Below, in pieces: positions 4,463 to 31,219 of a stretch of 31,465 bases of DNA. The notes below the pieces were generated by a model, which did no database searches, was not told where the DNA came from, and was given only the letters and a program-made list of their open reading frames with translations. Position numbers and translations under genes: made by a program. Source of the stretch: Leptospirales bacterium (GTDB lineage Bacteria; Spirochaetota; Leptospiria; Leptospirales; Leptonemataceae); assembly GCA_050305335.1 (NCBI GenBank), contig JBNLFC010000001.1, forward strand, positions 1-31,465, written 5' to 3'. The first letter of the stretch is position 1. Each line of letters starts with the position of its first letter.

Positions 4463-4899
4463 AATCTCTACGCTTCGGAGTTCATCCGATCAAATCGCGC
4501 CGAAAAAATAAAAACGGACAGACATCTAAAACAGATCCTCCAGATCTGGGAGAAGTGGCTATCTGGAACGAATACGGTACCGCTACCATCCCGCCTCGCC
4601 CGGCATTCAGGATGGGACTTGAGGCAGCAGTTAAAAAGCACAAAAAACTACTCGACGCGCAGCTCAAAAACATTGCACAACTGGTATTGACAGGCAGACA
4701 TATAGATATAGATCGTAACCTGACAGTGTTATTGACACAGATAGGAAGATCTGCTAAAAAAGAAACTCAGGACATTATTCGCGCGGGATCAACTACTCCG
4801 AATGCGCCATCAACTATTGCGCGGAAAGGGTTTGACCACCCGCTTTATGAGGAGGGAGTATTGCTGGAAAATGTTGACTATGAGGTGATAGACGAATGA
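4453..4899 (+). CDS. HK97 gp10-like protein
   Basis: Motif YGTATIPPRPAFRMGLE resembles the HK97-gp10 family signature GT..IPARPF. Confidence 0.45.
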   Translation: MGMKSLRFGVHPIKSRRKNKNGQTSKTDPPDLGEVAIWNEYGTATIPPRPAFRMGLEAAVKKHKKLLDAQLKNIAQLVLTGRHIDIDRNLTVLLTQIGRSAKKETQDIIRAGSTTPNAPSTIARKGFDHPLYEEGVLLENVDYEVIDE

Positions 4900-5105
4900 A
4901 AAGTTGTAATTGTCATCTGCCATATAGCAATCCAGAGGCATGCAAATATTGCCCAAATGGATTGCTGACACATCCAGATCCGGTTTTTTTTGTTTCAAAA
5001 CTTCCCATAAAAAGAATAACAGAACGCTATTATCCAGATGGAAAGTTGAAAGAAAGAATTACTGAAATCATTGAAGAAGATGAATATAAGGTAAAACAAA
5101 CATGA
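4896..5105 (+). CDS. small Cys-rich (zinc-ribbon-like) protein
   Basis: CNCH...CKYCPNG arrangement; translationally coupled (ATGA overlaps) on both sides. Confidence 0.4.
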   Translation: MKSCNCHLPYSNPEACKYCPNGLLTHPDPVFFVSKLPIKRITERYYPDGKLKERITEIIEEDEYKVKQT

Positions 5106-24155: not shown

Positions 24156-25144
24156 TGACCGCCCGTACGCCGCTTGCAATAGTGGCTGGCCTGATAGAGC
24201 AGATCCAATCTGCGGACATGGCGGACTCTCTCTCTGCTCTACTCGACTGGCTGGGATCCGCCGCCCAGGGGGATATTCTGTACCGTGGTTCGTCAAGTTG
24301 GGCCTACCTGGCTCCTGGAACCAGCGGTCAATTATTACAGACCAACGGGGCGTCCGCAAATCCGACATGGGTTTCCCCATCCGCGACGACATTTCCTCCT
24401 GGAATAGTGATTCCCTATGGTGGAATATCGGCCCCATCCGGCTACCTGATGTGCGATGGAAGCTCTGTTTTGCGGGCGAGCTATGCAGATCTTTATGACA
24501 TCATATGCCCGAGCAAAGGCACATTTACAGTTACTATTGCGACTCCTGGCGTGGTCACTCTCACCAGTCACGGAATGCAGACAGGAGATAGAGTTGAACT
24601 CACCACCGACGGATCTCTGCCTACCGGGTTGACAGCCTATACAAATTATTACGTAATATATATAGACGCGAATAGTTTTAATCTTGCAACATCATATGCA
24701 AACGCAATAGCATCTACTGCGATAGATACATCAGGAACTCAGAGCGGAACTCATACATTGAGATACATACCGAACGGAACGGCAGATTCAACTCATTTCA
24801 ACGTGCCTGACATGGTAGGCGCAGCACCGCGTGGAGCAGGAACATCAACCGGATATACTCAGGATGTTTCTGTCGTGATGGGACACAAAGACGATGATCA
24901 GTTTCAGGACGCACAGATAGGTGTGACAGTATCCGGAACTACGTATTATGGATACTCTGATGCACAGAACTACGCCAACTCTGTTTCCGCAAGCTCAAAT
25001 TTCGCTCCTCTATATGCTAATTCAACAAAACAGGGAGTGTCTGGTAAGTTGGGACATTTAAGCGATGGGACAAATGGAACTCCACGAACCGGAAACGAAA
25101 CAAAAATGAAGAACGTAGGTTTAAATTTTATAATAAAGACGTGA
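24155..25144 (+). CDS. tail fiber protein with a phage tail-collar domain
   Basis: IVIPYGGISAPSGYLMCDGSSVLRASYADLYDII matches the tail-collar motif (P.G.l.CDG..l....Y..L...iG). Confidence 0.6.
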   Translation: MTARTPLAIVAGLIEQIQSADMADSLSALLDWLGSAAQGDILYRGSSSWAYLAPGTSGQLLQTNGASANPTWVSPSATTFPPGIVIPYGGISAPSGYLMCDGSSVLRASYADLYDIICPSKGTFTVTIATPGVVTLTSHGMQTGDRVELTTDGSLPTGLTAYTNYYVIYIDANSFNLATSYANAIASTAIDTSGTQSGTHTLRYIPNGTADSTHFNVPDMVGAAPRGAGTSTGYTQDVSVVMGHKDDDQFQDAQIGVTVSGTTYYGYSDAQNYANSVSASSNFAPLYANSTKQGVSGKLGHLSDGTNGTPRTGNETKMKNVGLNFIIKT

Positions 25145-25509
25145 CGATGGATATTCAATTATGGATAAATTTAGGATTGGGATCTATTATTGGTCTGGGT
25201 AGCTATATCTATAGAGACCGGGATAGCCAGATAAAAGATCTTAAAAAAGAGGTTTCCCACTTGAAAGACGAGCTGGCTGAACAGAAAACACAAATCGCGG
25301 TTCTGGATGGTGTTACAACAACACAGGCCTCAGCTACCGATAGTAAGATAAATCAATTGGACACTGATCTAAAAGAATTTCGAAAAGAGTTTAACGAAAA
25401 TATAAAAGATCTTCACAAAAAAATAGAATCATCTATGCACCACATGAAAAATGAAATTATCGCAGTATTACCAAAACGTTCAGAAGACAAAATAGGGGAT
25501 AAATTATGA
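25141..25509 (+). CDS. membrane-anchored coiled-coil protein (i-spanin-like)
   Basis: N-terminal TM helix (INLGLGSIIGLGSYIY) then a charged heptad-like region; first gene of the lysis cluster. Confidence 0.35.
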   Translation: MTMDIQLWINLGLGSIIGLGSYIYRDRDSQIKDLKKEVSHLKDELAEQKTQIAVLDGVTTTQASATDSKINQLDTDLKEFRKEFNENIKDLHKKIESSMHHMKNEIIAVLPKRSEDKIGDKL

Positions 25510-25748
25510 AGAAAGTTTACAGCATATTATTTTTTATAATTGGAGTTGGAGCTCTGGGATTTTCTGCTATAGCATTTTTGAATCCTGTTGCAGTCAATCT
25601 TCAAATCATGGGAGCAGTTATTCCACCGTGGGCTGCCGGTCTGGCAGTGGCAATCGTAACTCTTTCGCCATCGTTTTCGGTAGTGATAAAAGGGACTCCT
25701 CTACCCGGAATGTTGAAAAGTTTGCCATTTATTAGGAGAAAAGAATGA
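25506..25748 (+). CDS. putative holin (80 aa, 2-3 TM helices)
   Basis: Hydrophobicity pattern; charged C-terminus; position near the endolysin. Confidence 0.4.
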   Translation: MKKVYSILFFIIGVGALGFSAIAFLNPVAVNLQIMGAVIPPWAAGLAVAIVTLSPSFSVVIKGTPLPGMLKSLPFIRRKE

Positions 25749-26026
25749 TTGAAAAACTAAAATCGGTTGGTTCATTTCTTGTAGCCAATTGGAAAATCAC
25801 ATCGATTGCAATCGCTGGTATTATTATACTGATTGTAATAAACGTGTCAGTGAGATACATCTATTATCGGTTCAAACGACCGGATGCAACCGTGCCGGCG
25901 AATCAAACTCGACCGGTGGATTACCTGGGTGATACAAATTATGAAAACTGTCAATTCACTTCAAACATAGGAGATCCAGATGAACGTCACTCGTTTTGTG
26001 TTGATATCAGCAATTCTGCTGAGTAA
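25745..26026 (+). CDS. small single-pass membrane protein
   Basis: TM segment ITSIAIAGIIILIVINV. Confidence 0.3.
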   Translation: MIEKLKSVGSFLVANWKITSIAIAGIIILIVINVSVRYIYYRFKRPDATVPANQTRPVDYLGDTNYENCQFTSNIGDPDERHSFCVDISNSAE

Positions 26027-26378
26027 TTTTTCCTGTTCCAGTTTCACTCGACCAGAAGTTGAGGTGATTCCTCCCCCTGGTAGAGCCGGCTGCACACAGT
26101 ACCAGTATGATCGGCTAAAATACCAGAGCTGTCTTGTTGGAATGCGACAAACCTGGGAACAACGAGAAAATGCAGACCCCGTACTGGAACTCGTCGAAAC
26201 AAAGCGAAGCGACTCAGTCTGGGTAATCCAGCATTACCGCATATGCCGACATGACTTCTGCACAGAATTCCAGGTACCCAGCGAAGACCACACTCTGTGG
26301 GGAGACATCCAGAGAGGAGGCCTATGGTTTCTCAGCGGATTCATAACTGGCGTAGTAGCAATACTGGCGGGTGGATAA
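25980..26378 (+). CDS. secreted/membrane protein with an N-terminal signal-like segment and a C-terminal TM anchor (possible o-spanin-like or lysis accessory protein)
   Basis: N-terminal hydrophobic FVLISAILLSNFSCSS and C-terminal LWFLSGFITGVVAILAGG; SD GGAG. Confidence 0.3.
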   Translation: MNVTRFVLISAILLSNFSCSSFTRPEVEVIPPPGRAGCTQYQYDRLKYQSCLVGMRQTWEQRENADPVLELVETKRSDSVWVIQHYRICRHDFCTEFQVPSEDHTLWGDIQRGGLWFLSGFITGVVAILAGG

Positions 26379-26379
26379 A

Positions 26380-26511
26380 ATGGAAATTGCAAAAATTGCA
26401 GGTATCGTCGTAGGAGTTCTGGCCCTTGTGGCCCTCGGTTTGTATGTAGGATTCAGGATTGTGTTCAACTGGATCCTGTCTGGATTTGTAAAACTATTCC
26501 GATCAAGGTAA
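26380..26511 (+). CDS. small TM protein (43 aa), not in the ORF track
   Basis: ATG immediately after the upstream stop; the whole ORF is one TM helix plus a basic tail; hand-translated. Confidence 0.25.
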   Translation: MEIAKIAGIVVGVLALVALGLYVGFRIVFNWILSGFVKLFRSR

Positions 26512-26514
26512 AAT

Positions 26515-26976
26515 ATGCAGTTTAAGGTTTTCATTCCACCAACCGGTCCAGAAGATCGAATCCGAGTCACATCACCGTATGGCTGGCGAATCCTCAACGG
26601 CCAAAAACAATTCCATCCAGGCTGGGACTTACGAACCATCTGGCCAAGAAAAGAATATGATGGCCTCATTCGTGCCCACGAATCCCTTGTAATTATGCGA
26701 ATTGAAGACTACGGCGGATACAAATACATAGATGCCAGTGGAGCCTCAGGTCTCTTCTATCGATTTGGTCATGTAGAACCGGTAACAGATCTACGAGAAA
26801 ATCAAGAAATCGTGAGAGGGTACTACTTCTCCAGAGCTGGATTGTTCGCCACAACCTCGTTACACCTGCACTTTGAAGTACATCATGTGGATCCAGCGTA
26901 TCGTAAGGGAGTAGATCCATCAGAGTTCTTCGCTCACATCCATCGATGCGATGAACATGGAAATATTATAGCATAG
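26515..26976 (+). CDS. M23 family peptidase (LytM-like peptidoglycan endopeptidase), putative endolysin
   Basis: HPGWD (HxxxD) and HLHFEVHH (HxH) M23 active-site motifs; last gene of the lysis cluster and of the rightward unit. Confidence 0.7.
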   Translation: MQFKVFIPPTGPEDRIRVTSPYGWRILNGQKQFHPGWDLRTIWPRKEYDGLIRAHESLVIMRIEDYGGYKYIDASGASGLFYRFGHVEPVTDLRENQEIVRGYYFSRAGLFATTSLHLHFEVHHVDPAYRKGVDPSEFFAHIHRCDEHGNIIA

Positions 26977-26993
26977 CCCCGGTTTCCCGGGGC
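26976..26993. terminator. GC-rich hairpin GCCCCGG-TTTC-CCGGGGC between convergent gene ends (bidirectional terminator candidate); its core is repeated at 31229-31244
   Basis: 7-bp G/C stem with a 4-nt loop read directly; lies between the stop at 26974-26976 (+) and the stop at 27008-27010 (-). Confidence 0.45.
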
Positions 26994-27007: not shown

Positions 27008-27841
27008 TCACTTTACGTTTACAAAAGGGACGGAGCTTCCGGGGATCATGGAGGTAGGCAATTTACCGTCCCATTTTTTTATCGCTTCCTGCTGCACTTT
27101 TATTCGCTCATATTCCAGAAGAGCTTGTGTAATCGATTGAGCTTTTTTGCGTAGGGCTTCTGCTTCACCTCTCGCCTGCGCAATTTGTTTATCTGCCTCT
27201 GCTCTGGCTTCAGCAACCTCATTCTCTCTCTGTTGCGCTTTCTGGGTAGCCTGGACTTTTGCATTAAGAGCTTCTGTCATAGCTGATGGCAATCTTAACT
27301 CTCCGATCCAGTAGATTTTATCCACTATTATTCCGAATTGAGACACCTGGCTTGATACATCTTTTTGCACTCGTTCGATTAAATCCGCTTTGCCTGCTCC
27401 ATATACGGATTCAATTTCATATCCTCCAGCGATTTTATTGAGAGAATCACGGACATAATTTCGCAGATATATATCAGTTATCTCATCGGTTCCCTTACGG
27501 AATTTCTCAAACAGAGCAGAAACTTTGGTAGGATCTATATGATATGATATACCCAAATCGGCTGAAACTTTCATTCCTTCTTTTGTTTGAAACGAAATCG
27601 ATTCGTCGTTTGGAGATCCTTCATCTCTGCTTTGAGTCCATACATAGTTTTGCTGGAATGTAGGAAAAAGATAAAGCTCTTCGTTTACTCCGATCCAATA
27701 TCGACCGATTCCAAGCTCTTCATGGTCCACGCCTTTTGATGTTCCTAGCAGGTAAACCTTTACGCCCACATGCCCGGCAGGAACTTTGCTACACGCCATC
27801 AATGTTGCAATCATCAGAAAATAAACAACAAGTTTTCTCAT
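27008..27841 (-). CDS. SPFH/Band-7 (prohibitin/HflC-like) domain lipoprotein
   Basis: Lipoprotein signal with LMAC lipobox; SPFH core followed by a long Ala/Glu/Gln-rich coiled coil (EVAEARAEADKQIAQARGEAEALRKKAQ) typical of Band-7 proteins. Confidence 0.7.
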   Translation of the reverse strand: MRKLVVYFLMIATLMACSKVPAGHVGVKVYLLGTSKGVDHEELGIGRYWIGVNEELYLFPTFQQNYVWTQSRDEGSPNDESISFQTKEGMKVSADLGISYHIDPTKVSALFEKFRKGTDEITDIYLRNYVRDSLNKIAGGYEIESVYGAGKADLIERVQKDVSSQVSQFGIIVDKIYWIGELRLPSAMTEALNAKVQATQKAQQRENEVAEARAEADKQIAQARGEAEALRKKAQSITQALLEYERIKVQQEAIKKWDGKLPTSMIPGSSVPFVNVK

Positions 27842-28110
27842 TCTATTACCTCACTAATTTTTTTGACGGCATATTTTATTACTGAAAAATCTGCCAGAAT
27901 CAGAATAATTCCGATAATAATTCCCGCAATCACAAATTCTGTAACTGAACTGGAAATAAAAATCGGCTCAATAACACCTATGACAAATGTATTCACAATC
28001 AAAAAAGTGATTATGAATACAAGATGTCTTAATTTTATTTTATCAATCATTTGCTTCATGCTCAGGATAATAGTTTTTCTGTATCTTCCAGATTGCTTTT
28101 GCGCATTCAA
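27838..28110 (-). CDS. small two-TM membrane protein (possible NfeD/YqiJ-like partner of the SPFH protein)
   Basis: Two hydrophobic helices; directly upstream of and translationally coupled to the SPFH gene, the canonical NfeD-SPFH gene order. Confidence 0.35.
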   Translation of the reverse strand: MNAQKQSGRYRKTIILSMKQMIDKIKLRHLVFIITFLIVNTFVIGVIEPIFISSSVTEFVIAGIIIGIILILADFSVIKYAVKKISEVIE

Positions 28111-28819
28111 AAACCTGACGAGAATTTATCCTATCGTCTGCATCCCAGAATTTAAAGTACCATTTTCCTGGATTCATTCTATCAATTATCAGGTTTGCTG
28201 TAAAATATAAAGGACCATCATATGCCATTGCATAAGCTTCTAATTGATAGCACCATTCTGGATAAAATACAGGTTTCTCTTTGACATCCTGAGATTTTAC
28301 ATCAATCAAGATTTTATCAAATGAACCAATCATTCCAATTAGATCATAAGTTCCAGCATAATCAGAGTTAACAATAATATTTTCTGATGATTTGATCCTG
28401 ATCTCATATTCATCAATGCAGGATTGAAATGCAATGAGATATTGCGTCATTTTATTCGAAAATGATTTGTGTTTAACATATGCTTCAATCGCTCTATGGA
28501 TCTGTGTCCCGAGATCGGCTGAATTTTTGGTATGCTCCTTCGCGTCTTTCACTGCTCGTTTTGCAAAATCATCCAGGGATTCGTCTTCTATTCGAGGCAA
28601 CGTAAGAGAAGCCAAAATGGCCTGTTCCTGTTTCCATGCCTCAAGCTGGGGTTTGTTGAGCACCTGGAGAATGCTGGTAACAGATGGTAGCAGATCCATT
28701 TTCCTGGCATCGCGCAAAGTGGTAGGACGCCATTCTCCGTTTTTAGATTGTACCTCATGCACTGGCCTACCATCTCTGGTGTACCAGTGCGCTGAGTTAT
28801 AGACAGTTATGAGCTTCAA
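28043..28819 (-). CDS. PD-(D/E)XK family nuclease (RecB/YqaJ/Cas4-like exonuclease)
   Basis: Motifs D (YDLIG), IDVK (E/D-x-K) and QLEAY (QxxxY) in the canonical order. Confidence 0.5.
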   Translation of the reverse strand: MKLITVYNSAHWYTRDGRPVHEVQSKNGEWRPTTLRDARKMDLLPSVTSILQVLNKPQLEAWKQEQAILASLTLPRIEDESLDDFAKRAVKDAKEHTKNSADLGTQIHRAIEAYVKHKSFSNKMTQYLIAFQSCIDEYEIRIKSSENIIVNSDYAGTYDLIGMIGSFDKILIDVKSQDVKEKPVFYPEWCYQLEAYAMAYDGPLYFTANLIIDRMNPGKWYFKFWDADDRINSRQVFECAKAIWKIQKNYYPEHEAND

Positions 28820-29745
28820 AACAGATCCTCCGTCTGTTCTGATGATGATTCTGGTTGTGCTGGAATGCTTTCGCCTTCCTGTTTGAACTTGAATTTAGAT
28901 TTTGCAAACCCGATAACGTCGAAACCATTGTGGCGAAGATCTGGATTTTTACCGTTTGTCGCTGTGTTCCATCGAGTTTCGATTACCTCAAGATCTTGCA
29001 ATGAGTTTGCCTTATCAACCTCATCCTGAAGGCGTTCGAGAGCTGATTTTGTCGGAGTAGGTTCTGGAATATCCTGCCCTTCGTTTAACCAATGAATCAG
29101 ATCCTTTCCGAGATCAACGCCTGGTTTTGGAATTATTGCGTCCTGATACTTTCCAGTTCTATCTTTAGTGACATGCCCGGAATGTTCTTCGCTAAGTTCG
29201 ATCAGCATGTCGAATTCATATTCGATACCCTTTCCCTGCTCAGGAGATAGACCGAGTTTTTTAGGTGCCACTTTCCCCTTGTCTGTTTCAATCAATGCAT
29301 ACTCAATTTTGCTGCGCATCGTTGCTATAACATGACCAGGGAATGAAAGAATGGAATTGACAAACATTTTTTGTTTCGGTGTCCCCTCGCTCCATGCGGA
29401 CCAGGTATTTCCTCGAAATTTTGATTGTGCAATCTTTTCCACTTCCTGTAACAGCTCTTGCCAGGCATGAGACATAGAGTCGATAATAAGGACATTGTAT
29501 TGACCTGATGCTTCTGCAATGTATTTCACATATTCAGAGATATCACATCTGTTAAGATCTACTGTGTCAAAATCAAATCGATCCGCATATTTTGACGCGG
29601 AAGATCTCTCGGAATCGATCAGGGCAATTTTCCCTCCAATTCCTGTAGCGATAGAAAGAGCTGTATAGGTTTTTCCGCTTCCAGGAGGACCGAATATTGC
29701 ACAGCGTAGTTTAGATTTACTTTTAACTGCCTTTTTAAAGCTCAT
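28816..29745 (-). CDS. AAA_24 / Sak4-like RecA-fold ATPase (phage single-strand annealing/recombination ATPase)
   Basis: Walker A GPPGSGKT near the N-terminus, Walker B LIIDS, ~230-aa core with a C-terminal acidic tail; adjacent to the nuclease. Confidence 0.65.
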   Translation of the reverse strand: MSFKKAVKSKSKLRCAIFGPPGSGKTYTALSIATGIGGKIALIDSERSSASKYADRFDFDTVDLNRCDISEYVKYIAEASGQYNVLIIDSMSHAWQELLQEVEKIAQSKFRGNTWSAWSEGTPKQKMFVNSILSFPGHVIATMRSKIEYALIETDKGKVAPKKLGLSPEQGKGIEYEFDMLIELSEEHSGHVTKDRTGKYQDAIIPKPGVDLGKDLIHWLNEGQDIPEPTPTKSALERLQDEVDKANSLQDLEVIETRWNTATNGKNPDLRHNGFDVIGFAKSKFKFKQEGESIPAQPESSSEQTEDLF

Positions 29746-29942: not shown

Positions 29943-30199
29943 GACAGCACCTCACGGGTGATTCGATACAATCTCCAATTTTTCCCCTTCAATCTACGCG
30001 CGGATAGATTATGCAACCAGATCCGGGCTCGCATGTGCCGGTTGGCCTGTTTCCGCAGGTAATCAATCTCTTTTTGCATCGAACAGTGTACCTCCTCTAT
30101 CCGACGGATCTCCTCTCTTGCGCTGGATTTTTCCGGCACGTACACTCTGTCGAGATTGCGCAGAGTTCGCAGCTCGTATTCTATGTCATATGGTTGCAT
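29939..30199 (-). CDS. hypothetical basic protein (86 aa)
   Basis: ORF, coupled. Confidence 0.35.
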   Translation of the reverse strand: MQPYDIEYELRTLRNLDRVYVPEKSSAREEIRRIEEVHCSMQKEIDYLRKQANRHMRARIWLHNLSARRLKGKNWRLYRITREVLS

Positions 30200-30765
30200 T
30201 GTTTTTTATTCTCCTGTTCCGTTTTGATGAATTTCTCTGCAACAAACGAAAGAACCTCGAACGCAAATTTTCTGCGATTTGATTCATAGGAATCATCGTT
30301 CGGAAATTCGTTATCGTTATTCCAAAAGTCATTAGCCCACTCCTGTTGCGACCTGTAATGACAACCAAATCTCATATACACCGAATCGTCATAAAATATA
30401 ACGAGAGTATTTTTGTATCTGTATAGATTATTGTAAAACGATATATGTTTTACAAGCTTATTTTTGTATAAAATTTTGCCGACTGCGCGAATGTCGCCGT
30501 TTGCGTCAATGTGTCCGACTGCGTCAATGTGTCCGACTGCGTGAATGTAGCCGTCTGCGTGAATGTAGCCGCTTGCGTCAATGTGTCCGACTGCGTCAAT
30601 GTTGCCGTCTGCGTGAATGTAGCCGATTGCGCGAATGTCGCCGTTTGAGCGAATGGAGCCGTCTGTGCGAATGTCGCAATTAAATTCAATTGAATCCTCG
30701 ACAATAAAATTGCCATAATTGTTCAGCATTGAATTAAACTGTTCTTGAGTGTCTATAGTTAACAT
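30181..30765 (-). CDS. hexapeptide-repeat protein: ~11 tandem G-[HY]-I-[DHR]-A-[VDS] units encoded by the 18-bp tandem repeat, plus a Tyr/Asn-rich C-terminal domain
   Basis: SD AGGAGT 7 nt upstream of ATG; repeat units read directly in the translation. Confidence 0.5.
   Translation of the reverse strand: MLTIDTQEQFNSMLNNYGNFIVEDSIEFNCDIRTDGSIRSNGDIRAIGYIHADGNIDAVGHIDASGYIHADGYIHAVGHIDAVGHIDANGDIRAVGKILYKNKLVKHISFYNNLYRYKNTLVIFYDDSVYMRFGCHYRSQQEWANDFWNNDNEFPNDDSYESNRRKFAFEVLSFVAEKFIKTEQENKKQCNHMT
30481..30678. repeat. 11 x 18-bp head-to-tail tandem repeat, consensus G(A/T)(C/T)TGCG(T/C)(C/G)AATGT(A/G)(G/T)CC
   Basis: Units aligned by eye; all three frames on both strands are stop-free across the array. 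Confidence 0.9.
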
Positions 30766-31070: not shown

Positions 31071-31146
31071 TTTATTTTCCTCCAGAATTCAATTTGCGTT
31101 CAGGGGCAATAATATGACTCAGCATAAACTGAATCATAACCCGATG

Positions 31147-31219
31147 TGCCGTGTGTGTGGTTCGAACAAACGACCCCATGATTACAAAACAGATGCTCTA
31201 CCAACTGAGCTAAATCGGC
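31147..31219 (-). other. 73-nt tRNA-Thr(UGU)-like sequence, probably a pseudo-tRNA or tRNA-derived element (perfect D-arm and T-loop; 5 mispairs in the acceptor, anticodon and T stems)
   Basis: Minus strand reads GCCGATT TA GCTC AGTTGGTA GAGC A TCTGT TTTGTAA TCATG GGGTC GTTTG TTCGAAC CACAC ACACGGC A; canonical lengths for every element; no CCA. Confidence 0.35.

Follow-up and report, generated by a model that had tools for sequence, protein, structure and literature searches.

The window analysed here, a stretch of 31,465 nucleotides from a Leptospirales bacterium (contig JBNLFC010000001.1), carries on its minus strand, between positions 27008 and 28059, two overlapping genes: one for a small protein with two transmembrane (TM) segments and, directly downstream of it, one for a lipoprotein of the SPFH/Band-7 class. 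They represent a divergent version of a phage module that is already known and very common and are, as such, an ordinary find for this window. The two make up a single functional unit, found widely among phages, which has families of its own in the PHROG collection (phrog_1130 for the small partner and phrog_200 for the lipoprotein) and of which gp19-gp20 of phage N4 is the best-known representative. A first-pass annotation of the same DNA had considered an SPFH protein to be cargo not expected in a phage, a premise that is wrong because, besides belonging to phrog_200, the lipoprotein has homologues in 735 of 50,697 GenBank phage records searched by tblastn, with 722 of them covering at least 80% of the protein.

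The lipoprotein and its two-TM partner

The two genes and their parts are laid out in the window as follows.

27008..27841, minus strand: SPFH/Band-7 lipoprotein gene, phrog_200 member (277-amino-acid open reading frame, ORF)
27791..27841, minus strand: lipoprotein signal peptide, residues 1-17, with lipobox L-M-A-C (sequence reading and alignments)
27194..27787, minus strand: SPFH domain, residues 19-216 (Pfam envelope)
27074..27286, minus strand: long helical region of coiled-coil type, residues 186-256 (DSSP on the AlphaFold2 model, helices 186-236 and 239-256)
27011..27073, minus strand: conserved C-terminal tail W-D-G-x-L-P...P-G...P-F-x-x-V, residues 257-277 (alignments)
27838..28059, minus strand: partner gene for a 73-amino-acid two-TM hairpin protein of phrog_1130 type, probable start at 28059, whose TM1 ends with the motif P-x-[LMI]-[IVF]-S (start scan, hydropathy and family hidden Markov model, HMM)
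27838..27841, minus strand: ATGA overlap of the partner stop and the SPFH start (sequence; translational coupling)
27849..27852, minus strand: Shine-Dalgarno-like GAGG, 7 nt upstream of the SPFH ATG and within the partner gene (sequence reading)

The longer gene encodes a protein that matches Band_7 (PF01145) over positions 2-176 of the 176 in the Pfam model (E = 1.4e-25; 90.8 bits against a gathering cut-off of 23.6), and in the PHROG scan its residues 5-276 match phrog_200, the 'lipoprotein' family, at E = 3.1e-79. In its N-terminal sequence, MRKLVVYFLMIATLMAC-SKVPAG, a basic n-region is followed by a hydrophobic core and by an L-M-A-C lipobox in agreement with PROSITE PS51257. Cys17, which the sequence predicts to be the lipidated first residue of the mature protein, is invariant in alignments with both diverse (8/8) and closer (44/44) homologues. 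An exact-sequence look-up of the protein returned neither names nor accessions.

In the AlphaFold2 model of this protein (mean pLDDT 78; high confidence for the alpha/beta core, residues 60-183), the SPFH core leads into a long helix and then a C-terminal segment, as in the cage-forming members of the class. In alignments, the helical region corresponds to the helices that form the walls of the prohibitin and HflK cages, and the tail, which is extended in the model, contains four residues (W257, G259, P262 and P272) that are invariant among 8 diverse and 44 closer homologues. Both the SPFH/Band-7 lipoprotein with its LMAC lipobox and the coiled-coil tail had been recognized in the first-pass annotation, and these results bear it out on each.

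Foldseek searches with the model returned prohibitins (PHB1 and PHB2) as the best matches (E about 2e-11), followed by stomatin, HflK/C, erlin and flotillin; the top 29 matches were full-length prohibitin, stomatin, HflK/C and erlin chains, with flotillin at ranks 35-36. By sequence, the nearest PDB entries are prohibitin-2 (E = 2e-5) and HflK (E = 3e-5). The best NCBIfam models are likewise HflK and HflC, at scores far below the cut-off (27.1 bits versus 159.4 for TIGR01933), and N4 gp20 gives a similar result (20.7 bits versus a cut-off of 134.4 in the TIGR01933/TIGR01932 test). Because the score is so far below the equivalog cut-off, and because there is a single SPFH gene, we rejected membership in HflK/HflC and retained these proteins as an analogy only.

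HflK/HflC, which act with FtsH, have their SPFH domain on the periplasmic side, the side suggested for the window protein by its signal peptide, and they share with it the succession of SPFH domain, long helix and C-terminal cap (Foldseek E about 1e-9 to 1e-10). They differ in being anchored by an N-terminal TM helix, whereas the window protein would be anchored by lipid, in being encoded by two paralogous genes rather than one, and in having no dedicated two-TM partner. Prohibitin is the best match both by structure (PHB1/PHB2; 9o9z and 8rrh) and, as prohibitin-2, by sequence among PDB entries, but it has only 16-18% sequence identity to the window protein and is eukaryotic, heteromeric and TM-anchored. 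The cage structures of HflK/C and prohibitin have been solved only recently.

The smaller gene was described in the first-pass annotation as encoding a translationally coupled two-TM protein of 90 amino acids; the coupling, by way of the ATGA overlap, and the two TM segments stand, and the length probably does not. Its reading frame may start at an ATG at 28059, giving 73 residues beginning with MK, at an ATG at 28050, giving 70, or at a TTG at 28110, giving 90, which sits deep in the upstream exonuclease gene with an overlap of 68 nt. Because members of the partner family have a median length of 69.5 residues and usually start with MK, the two shorter versions fit the family better. A protein of 73 residues is more likely than one of 90, with the ATG at 28050 as an alternative start, and the TTG is probably an over-extension.

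The partner consists of a basic N-terminus, two hydrophobic segments separated by the short loop P-I-F-I-S-S-S-V-T-E, and a basic C-terminal tail; in its 73-residue form, some 12 residues at the N-terminus and some 12 at the C-terminus lie outside the membrane segments. By the positive-inside rule, the basic termini point to a hairpin with both ends in the cytoplasm (N-in/C-in). An HMM built from 41 partners at other loci recognized the window partner at 37 bits (E = 6e-11), and the runner-up among the 386 ORFs of the window had E = 0.03. In the PHROG scan, 38 of 42 syntenic partners matched phrog_1130 ('membrane protein'), and the window partner had no match at E <= 0.01. From its sequence it is a divergent member of the family, recognized by the custom family HMM and not by the PHROG library profile. 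None of the 42 partners had a convincing match to a Pfam family.

The closest well-known counterpart is in phage N4, in which gp19, a 68-residue two-TM protein with the motif P-S-M-V-S, overlaps the start of gp20, a 278-residue SPFH protein with a lipobox. The window lipoprotein is 39.6% identical to gp20 over 97% of its length and shares the conserved W-x-G-x-L-P tail at the C-terminus. The differences are in the partner, which has diverged from gp19 to the extent of lacking the phrog_1130 match, and in the phage itself, which is small (about 31.7 kb), myovirus-like and without a close cultured relative. More distant is the MbpV-MbpS pair of the Kayvirus phages K and G1: here too, a gene for a small membrane protein runs directly up to an SPFH gene, whose product is about 27% identical to the window lipoprotein over 99% of its length. 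In contrast to the window pair, however, MbpV-MbpS occurs in phages of a Gram-positive host and is placed in the lysK-tgl lysis region, MbpS is TM-anchored and has no lipobox, and MbpV has one TM helix and a long charged tail instead of the P-x-L-I-S hairpin.

Conservation and distribution of the pairing

The association between the two genes was surveyed at 80 IMG/VR loci and 80 GTDB genome loci, reduced to non-redundant sets. In a survey of ORFs, 107 of 117 non-redundant SPFH homologues had a lipobox, and for 94 of the 117 a small hydrophobic ORF ended at the SPFH start, counting ATG starts only. The motif P-x-[LMI]-[IVF]-[SN] was present in 84 of these 94 small ORFs, and the commonest overlaps at the junction were 4 nt (36/94 loci), 8 nt (15) and 1 nt (10). 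Several of the apparent misses turned out to be partners with GTG starts or genes that had not been annotated. This bias toward particular start codons is removed by applying the partner HMM to the 420 nt upstream of each SPFH gene, which detected a partner at 94 of 128 non-redundant loci overall and at 51 of 57 phage loci. As a control, the same model was run against 15,971 segments of the surveyed loci, and matches came from just four loci, all of them displaced partners at loci without an upstream copy.

Contexts opened by hand agree with these counts. At each of eight loci (L001-L008), a hydrophobic ORF of 63-102 residues abuts the SPFH start (at L004 it was missing from the gene calls), and the partners viewed in this way include N4 gp19, gene 34 of CKB-S1 and gp49 of phi1026b. 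A tblastn search with N4 gp19 recovered close N4-like relatives only, and the partner was adjacent wherever the matched annotated features included an SPFH-type product. The tightest form of association is seen in two contigs of metagenome-assembled genomes, from Iamiaceae (L103) and Eubacteriaceae (L094), where partner and SPFH protein occupy one continuous ORF in the order TM1, TM2, basic linker, signal or TM3, and SPFH domain; each is a natural fusion or, at the least, a junction with no intervening stop. This order agrees with the one predicted by the topology proposed below.

Departures from the usual arrangement were also observed. At L015 and L124, a distance of about 1 kb separates the SPFH gene from a partner upstream of it (L124/L125 are Shigella and E. 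coli chromosomes); at L023 and L034 the partner is found downstream of the SPFH gene instead, and in Buttiauxella (L112) a stop codon interrupts it.

All-against-all clustering of 1,101 neighbouring genes revealed the partner as the sole conserved neighbour. The PHROG families assigned to 143 neighbours at 55 phage loci belong mainly to DNA and nucleotide metabolism, with clamp loaders, thymidylate synthases, ribonucleotide reductases, ligases, primases or helicases and annealing proteins among them, and none of the 25 most frequent is a lysis family. Neighbours of this type support early or middle expression of the pair. In N4, the pair is positioned just after the genes for RNA polymerase II (RNAP II).

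Not all copies are viral. In many Sphingomonas genomes (L130-L159), the pair has a place in the core chromosome, in the order recF, OmpA-family gene, pair and gyrB, and in Leptospira genomes (L096-L104 and L122) it adjoins sdhA/sdhB, again a core chromosomal setting. The module thus belongs to cells and not to phages alone, and this speaks for a general function in the membrane rather than for a target peculiar to phages.

The phages that carry the SPFH homologue are diverse. Besides N4, they include Burkholderia phage phi1026b, Bruynoghevirus-like Pseudomonas phages, PVP-SE1/KB57-like and phiCbK-like phages, Stx2-converting records, crAss-like and Lak phages, and Halorubrum phage HF2; Staphylococcus phages alone account for 275 carriers (Kayvirus MbpS). 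A search of metagenomic proteins gave 2,722 matches, and every context that was opened was phage-like, one of them being a 277-kb contig with genes for NAD salvage and a T4-type RNA ligase.

Names given to these homologues in GenBank phage records vary from lipoprotein, prohibitin family, SPFH and HflC to 'serine protease' and 'transposase', and the NCBI name for close homologues is 'prohibitin family protein'. The labels 'transposase', 'mobile element protein' and 'serine protease', each used for an SPFH homologue among several such records, look like propagated misannotations. In the record of a Stx2a-converting phage (LC567820.1, L169), the partner gene is unannotated: a 62-residue two-TM ORF at 4816-5004 (MRLYFTIV…PFLISMKD…) ends at the start of a 'serine protease' gene that in fact encodes the SPFH lipoprotein. 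In this phage, the pair is flanked by cI and xis-int and has the same orientation as cI.

Searches of the full-text literature found genome papers that list the gene, a discussion of the Kayvirus genes (PMC7150955) and a virulence study in Pasteurella (PMC9872710). Two papers that surfaced in the search concern other matters: the 'band 7' of a phiCbK paper refers to gel bands and not to the Band_7 domain, and a paper on Mu gp19 and gp20 shares only the gene numbers and makes no mention of SPFH, prohibitin or stomatin.

Genomic setting in the window

The window is a fragment of a tailed-phage genome, with genes for the large terminase, portal, head protease and baseplate wedge on the plus strand. 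The portal protein has no informative relative among GenBank phages, and a DNA search gave only weak matches, all confined to the SPFH gene. Around the pair, the relevant features are the following.

28816-29745, minus strand: AAA_24/Sak4-like ATPase gene (Pfam AAA_24, E = 1.5e-27)
28043-28819, minus strand: PD-(D/E)XK exonuclease gene, whose stop overlaps the partner start (ORF and family scans)
26976..26993, no strand assigned: hairpin with a 7-bp G+C stem, GCCCCGG-GAAA-CCGGGGC, between the convergent SPFH and endolysin stops (folding)

The partner and SPFH genes form the 3' terminus of a leftward unit of recombination and replication genes on the minus strand, a compact series whose stop and start codons overlap and which extends from about 31070 to 27008 and comprises genes of unknown function, the Sak4-like gene, the exonuclease gene, the partner and the SPFH gene; the genes between 28043 and 29745 have matches to phrog_1366, phrog_124 and phrog_298. 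The first-pass annotation had placed the pair at the end of this unit and outside the lysis cassette, which is correct with the qualification that the pair abuts the cassette: the stops of the convergent SPFH and M23 endolysin genes, on opposite strands, are separated by only 32 nt. Within this interval, the hairpin folds with a free energy of -17.1 kcal/mol (z = -3.65) as read on the minus strand and -15.9 kcal/mol (z = -2.84) on the plus strand, and it is a probable two-way terminator that closes the leftward unit. A scan for consensus terminators made no call at this position because the hairpin has no clear run of T residues.

The lysis cassette itself occupies 25141-26976 on the plus strand. 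It contains a 122-residue Rz-like ORF whose product has a TM helix at its N-terminus as well as a coiled coil (phrog_739, E = 2.4e-6), small TM ORFs of 80, 93 and 46 residues, and the M23-peptidase endolysin gene at 26515-26976 (phrog_3578, E = 2.9e-10). Also in the cassette, at 25980-26378 on the plus strand, is a 132-residue ORF that combines a lipobox at the N-terminus (LLSNFSC) with a TM helix at the C-terminus, LWFLSGFITGVVAILAGG. Unimolecular spanins such as T1 gp11 are built in this way; the sole family match of the ORF, to phrog_12133 (unknown function), is weak.

Three further observations concern the rest of the window. At the head of the leftward unit, near the end of the window, there is a tRNA-Tyr gene (GTA; 31146-31219, minus strand) that could be a phage tRNA or the remnant of an attachment site. 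A 194-residue ORF at 30181-30765 on the minus strand contains a run of near-identical short repeats (…DGNIDAVGHIDASGYIHADGYIHAVGHIDAVGHIDANGDIRAVG…) and has no PHROG match; its alternative frames are repetitive too. On the plus strand at 1154-1669, some 1.2 kb ahead of the gene for the large terminase, a gene encodes a protein with a ParB-like nuclease domain (phrog_620, E = 9.5e-26). A ParB-like gene near the terminase is a common arrangement in phages, and such proteins have sometimes been linked to packaging.

Possible roles of the pair

With moderate confidence, we propose that the module builds a lipid-anchored SPFH cage in the periplasm which, together with its two-TM partner and made at the time of the replication genes, corrals or shields components of the membrane. 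The partner would insert into the cytoplasmic membrane as an N-in/C-in hairpin and expose its conserved loop, P-x-L-I-S-S-x-D, at the outer face. The SPFH protein would be exported, lipidated on Cys17 and held at the periplasmic face of the cytoplasmic membrane, where its long helices and C-terminal tail would allow it to oligomerize into a closed cage like those of prohibitin, HflK/C and stomatin. Such a cage would fence off a patch of membrane that contains the partner, and the two proteins may be in physical contact. Produced alongside the replication and recombination genes, and well before lysis, the pair would most likely confine or protect components of the inner membrane while the infection proceeds. 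To judge from HflK/C and prohibitin, the best candidate client would be a membrane AAA protease like FtsH.

In HflK/C and prohibitin, the SPFH domain is on the non-cytoplasmic side, whereas the stomatin-type proteins that pair with NfeD, and QmcA, have it in the cytoplasm. Because it carries an export and lipidation signal, the window protein is likely to have its domain outside the cytoplasm, as HflK/C and prohibitin do. In all intact prophage copies from Enterobacteriaceae, the residue at position +2 after the lipobox Cys is Asp, which in this family of bacteria is the signal for avoiding the Lol pathway and remaining in the inner membrane. For the window protein, a position at the inner membrane would be deduced by homology only.

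Several observations weigh against this proposal. The window copy has Ser at +2, which by the sorting rules of E. coli (which may not be those of the host) would send it to the outer membrane, and an SPFH protein from a Pasteurella prophage has been reported in outer-membrane vesicles (PMC9872710). The first 40 residues of the mature protein were modelled poorly (pLDDT <50), and the likeness to HflK/HflC is that of a single SPFH gene scoring far below the family cut-off and having no link to FtsH. Finally, neither experimental work on the pair nor a functional analysis of it in phages was found in the full-text literature, subscription-only papers being outside our reach.

A more specific version of the cage hypothesis holds that the pair is a self-sufficient, phage-carried equivalent of HflK/C or prohibitin whose cage, at the periplasmic face of the inner membrane, takes hold of a membrane machine of the host, FtsH being the leading candidate; this version we consider unlikely. 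If it were true, the cage would reprogramme the turnover of membrane proteins, or would shield the membrane from premature collapse brought about by abortive-infection effectors or by the holins of the phage, and it would amount to a general host-takeover device of N4-like, Kayvirus-like, rV5-like, jumbo, crAss-like and many temperate phages.

Other explanations include the roles suggested in the first-pass annotation, namely superinfection exclusion, a defence or anti-defence scaffold, and control of lysis timing. One is that the pair governs lysis timing, with a holin- or antiholin-like partner and an SPFH cage that sequesters either this partner or a holin so as to delay or sharpen lysis, or with a cage that aids the export of a muralytic enzyme. 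The window pair ends 32 nt from a lysis cassette, a gene with an SLT domain is directly upstream of the pair at one of the loci opened by hand (L003), and N4 is known for its delayed lysis. In Kayvirus, the pair is flanked by lysK, which encodes the endolysin, and by tgl, which encodes the transglycosylase; the authors remarked on the likeness of MbpV to a holin and suggested a role in the export of Tgl (PMC7150955). However, the window pair belongs to a recombination unit on the strand opposite the lysis genes, and the window has candidate holin and spanin genes of its own; lysis families are missing from the 25 commonest neighbour families, 38 of the 42 partners match phrog_1130 and none a PHROG of the lysis category, and cellular copies adjoin gyrB or sdh genes. 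We regard a role in lysis as doubtful, and we are equally doubtful that the module acts in superinfection exclusion or defence, either as an early envelope complex that blocks the DNA of incoming phages at the inner membrane or in the periplasm (as do T4 Imm and Sp and P22 SieA) or as a scaffold for abortive infection or anti-defence. The envelope location predicted for both proteins would suit such a role, as would a position that suggests early or middle expression; moreover, the site of the Stx2-associated prophage pair, between cI and xis-int on the cI strand, is a frequent one for exclusion genes, and in the Vi01-like phage PhiSH19 the SPFH gene adjoins an annotated superinfection exclusion gene. 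Yet neither protein has a match in PADLOC-DB v2 at E <= 0.01, many of the carriers are strictly virulent phages whose hosts are unrelated and in part Gram-positive, and the status of the pair as a core chromosomal element in Sphingomonas and Leptospira does not suggest a dedicated anti-phage role; in the full-text literature, no functional link between SPFH proteins and exclusion was found.

It is very unlikely that the lipoprotein serves in lysogenic conversion, as a prophage moron whose target is the surface of the bacterium or an animal host. The model for this is PM0222 (Pmorf0222) of a Pasteurella multocida prophage, which by description is likewise an HflK/C-like SPFH protein of the envelope, found in outer-membrane vesicles; it has been studied as a virulence factor and an agonist of TLR1/2, its deletion attenuates virulence, and no partner gene has been described (PMC9872710). 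Homologues do occur in many prophages, but the gene in the window is embedded in a recombination operon, many carriers are virulent phages, and PHROG and Pfam scans of 24 window ORFs revealed neither an integrase nor a repressor. The least probable explanation, and one that is almost certainly wrong, is the 'NfeD-like' arrangement of the first-pass annotation, taken here as a canonical operon in which a truncated NfeD protein regulates a stomatin-type SPFH protein at the cytoplasmic face. As in the operons QmcA-YbbJ, PH1511-PH1510 and FloT-YuaF, an SPFH gene is co-oriented and coupled with the gene for a small membrane protein, but at the level of domain content this explanation is refuted: PF01957 was matched by 0 of 42 partners even at E <= 10, and with about 45 of its 73 residues in two TM helices, the window partner has no soluble domain and no room for the OB fold. 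In addition, the export signal would place the SPFH protein on the side of the membrane opposite that of the NfeD-associated stomatins, and its closest solved relatives are prohibitin-2 and HflK by sequence, and the prohibitin cage by fold.

Whatever its role, the module ranks among the more widely distributed pairs of membrane proteins in phages, occurring in N4, phage K, phi1026b, Stx-associated prophages, megaphages and crAss-like phages. The very tight pairing, which extends to gene fusions, together with the resemblance to HflK/C and prohibitin cages, makes the module as a whole deserving of attention. The analysis also corrects two likely habits of annotation, namely the use of labels such as 'serine protease' and 'transposase' for the SPFH gene and the failure to call its small partner, which is unannotated in at least one GenBank record. 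A role discovered for the pair in N4 or in phage K would apply to a large gene family.

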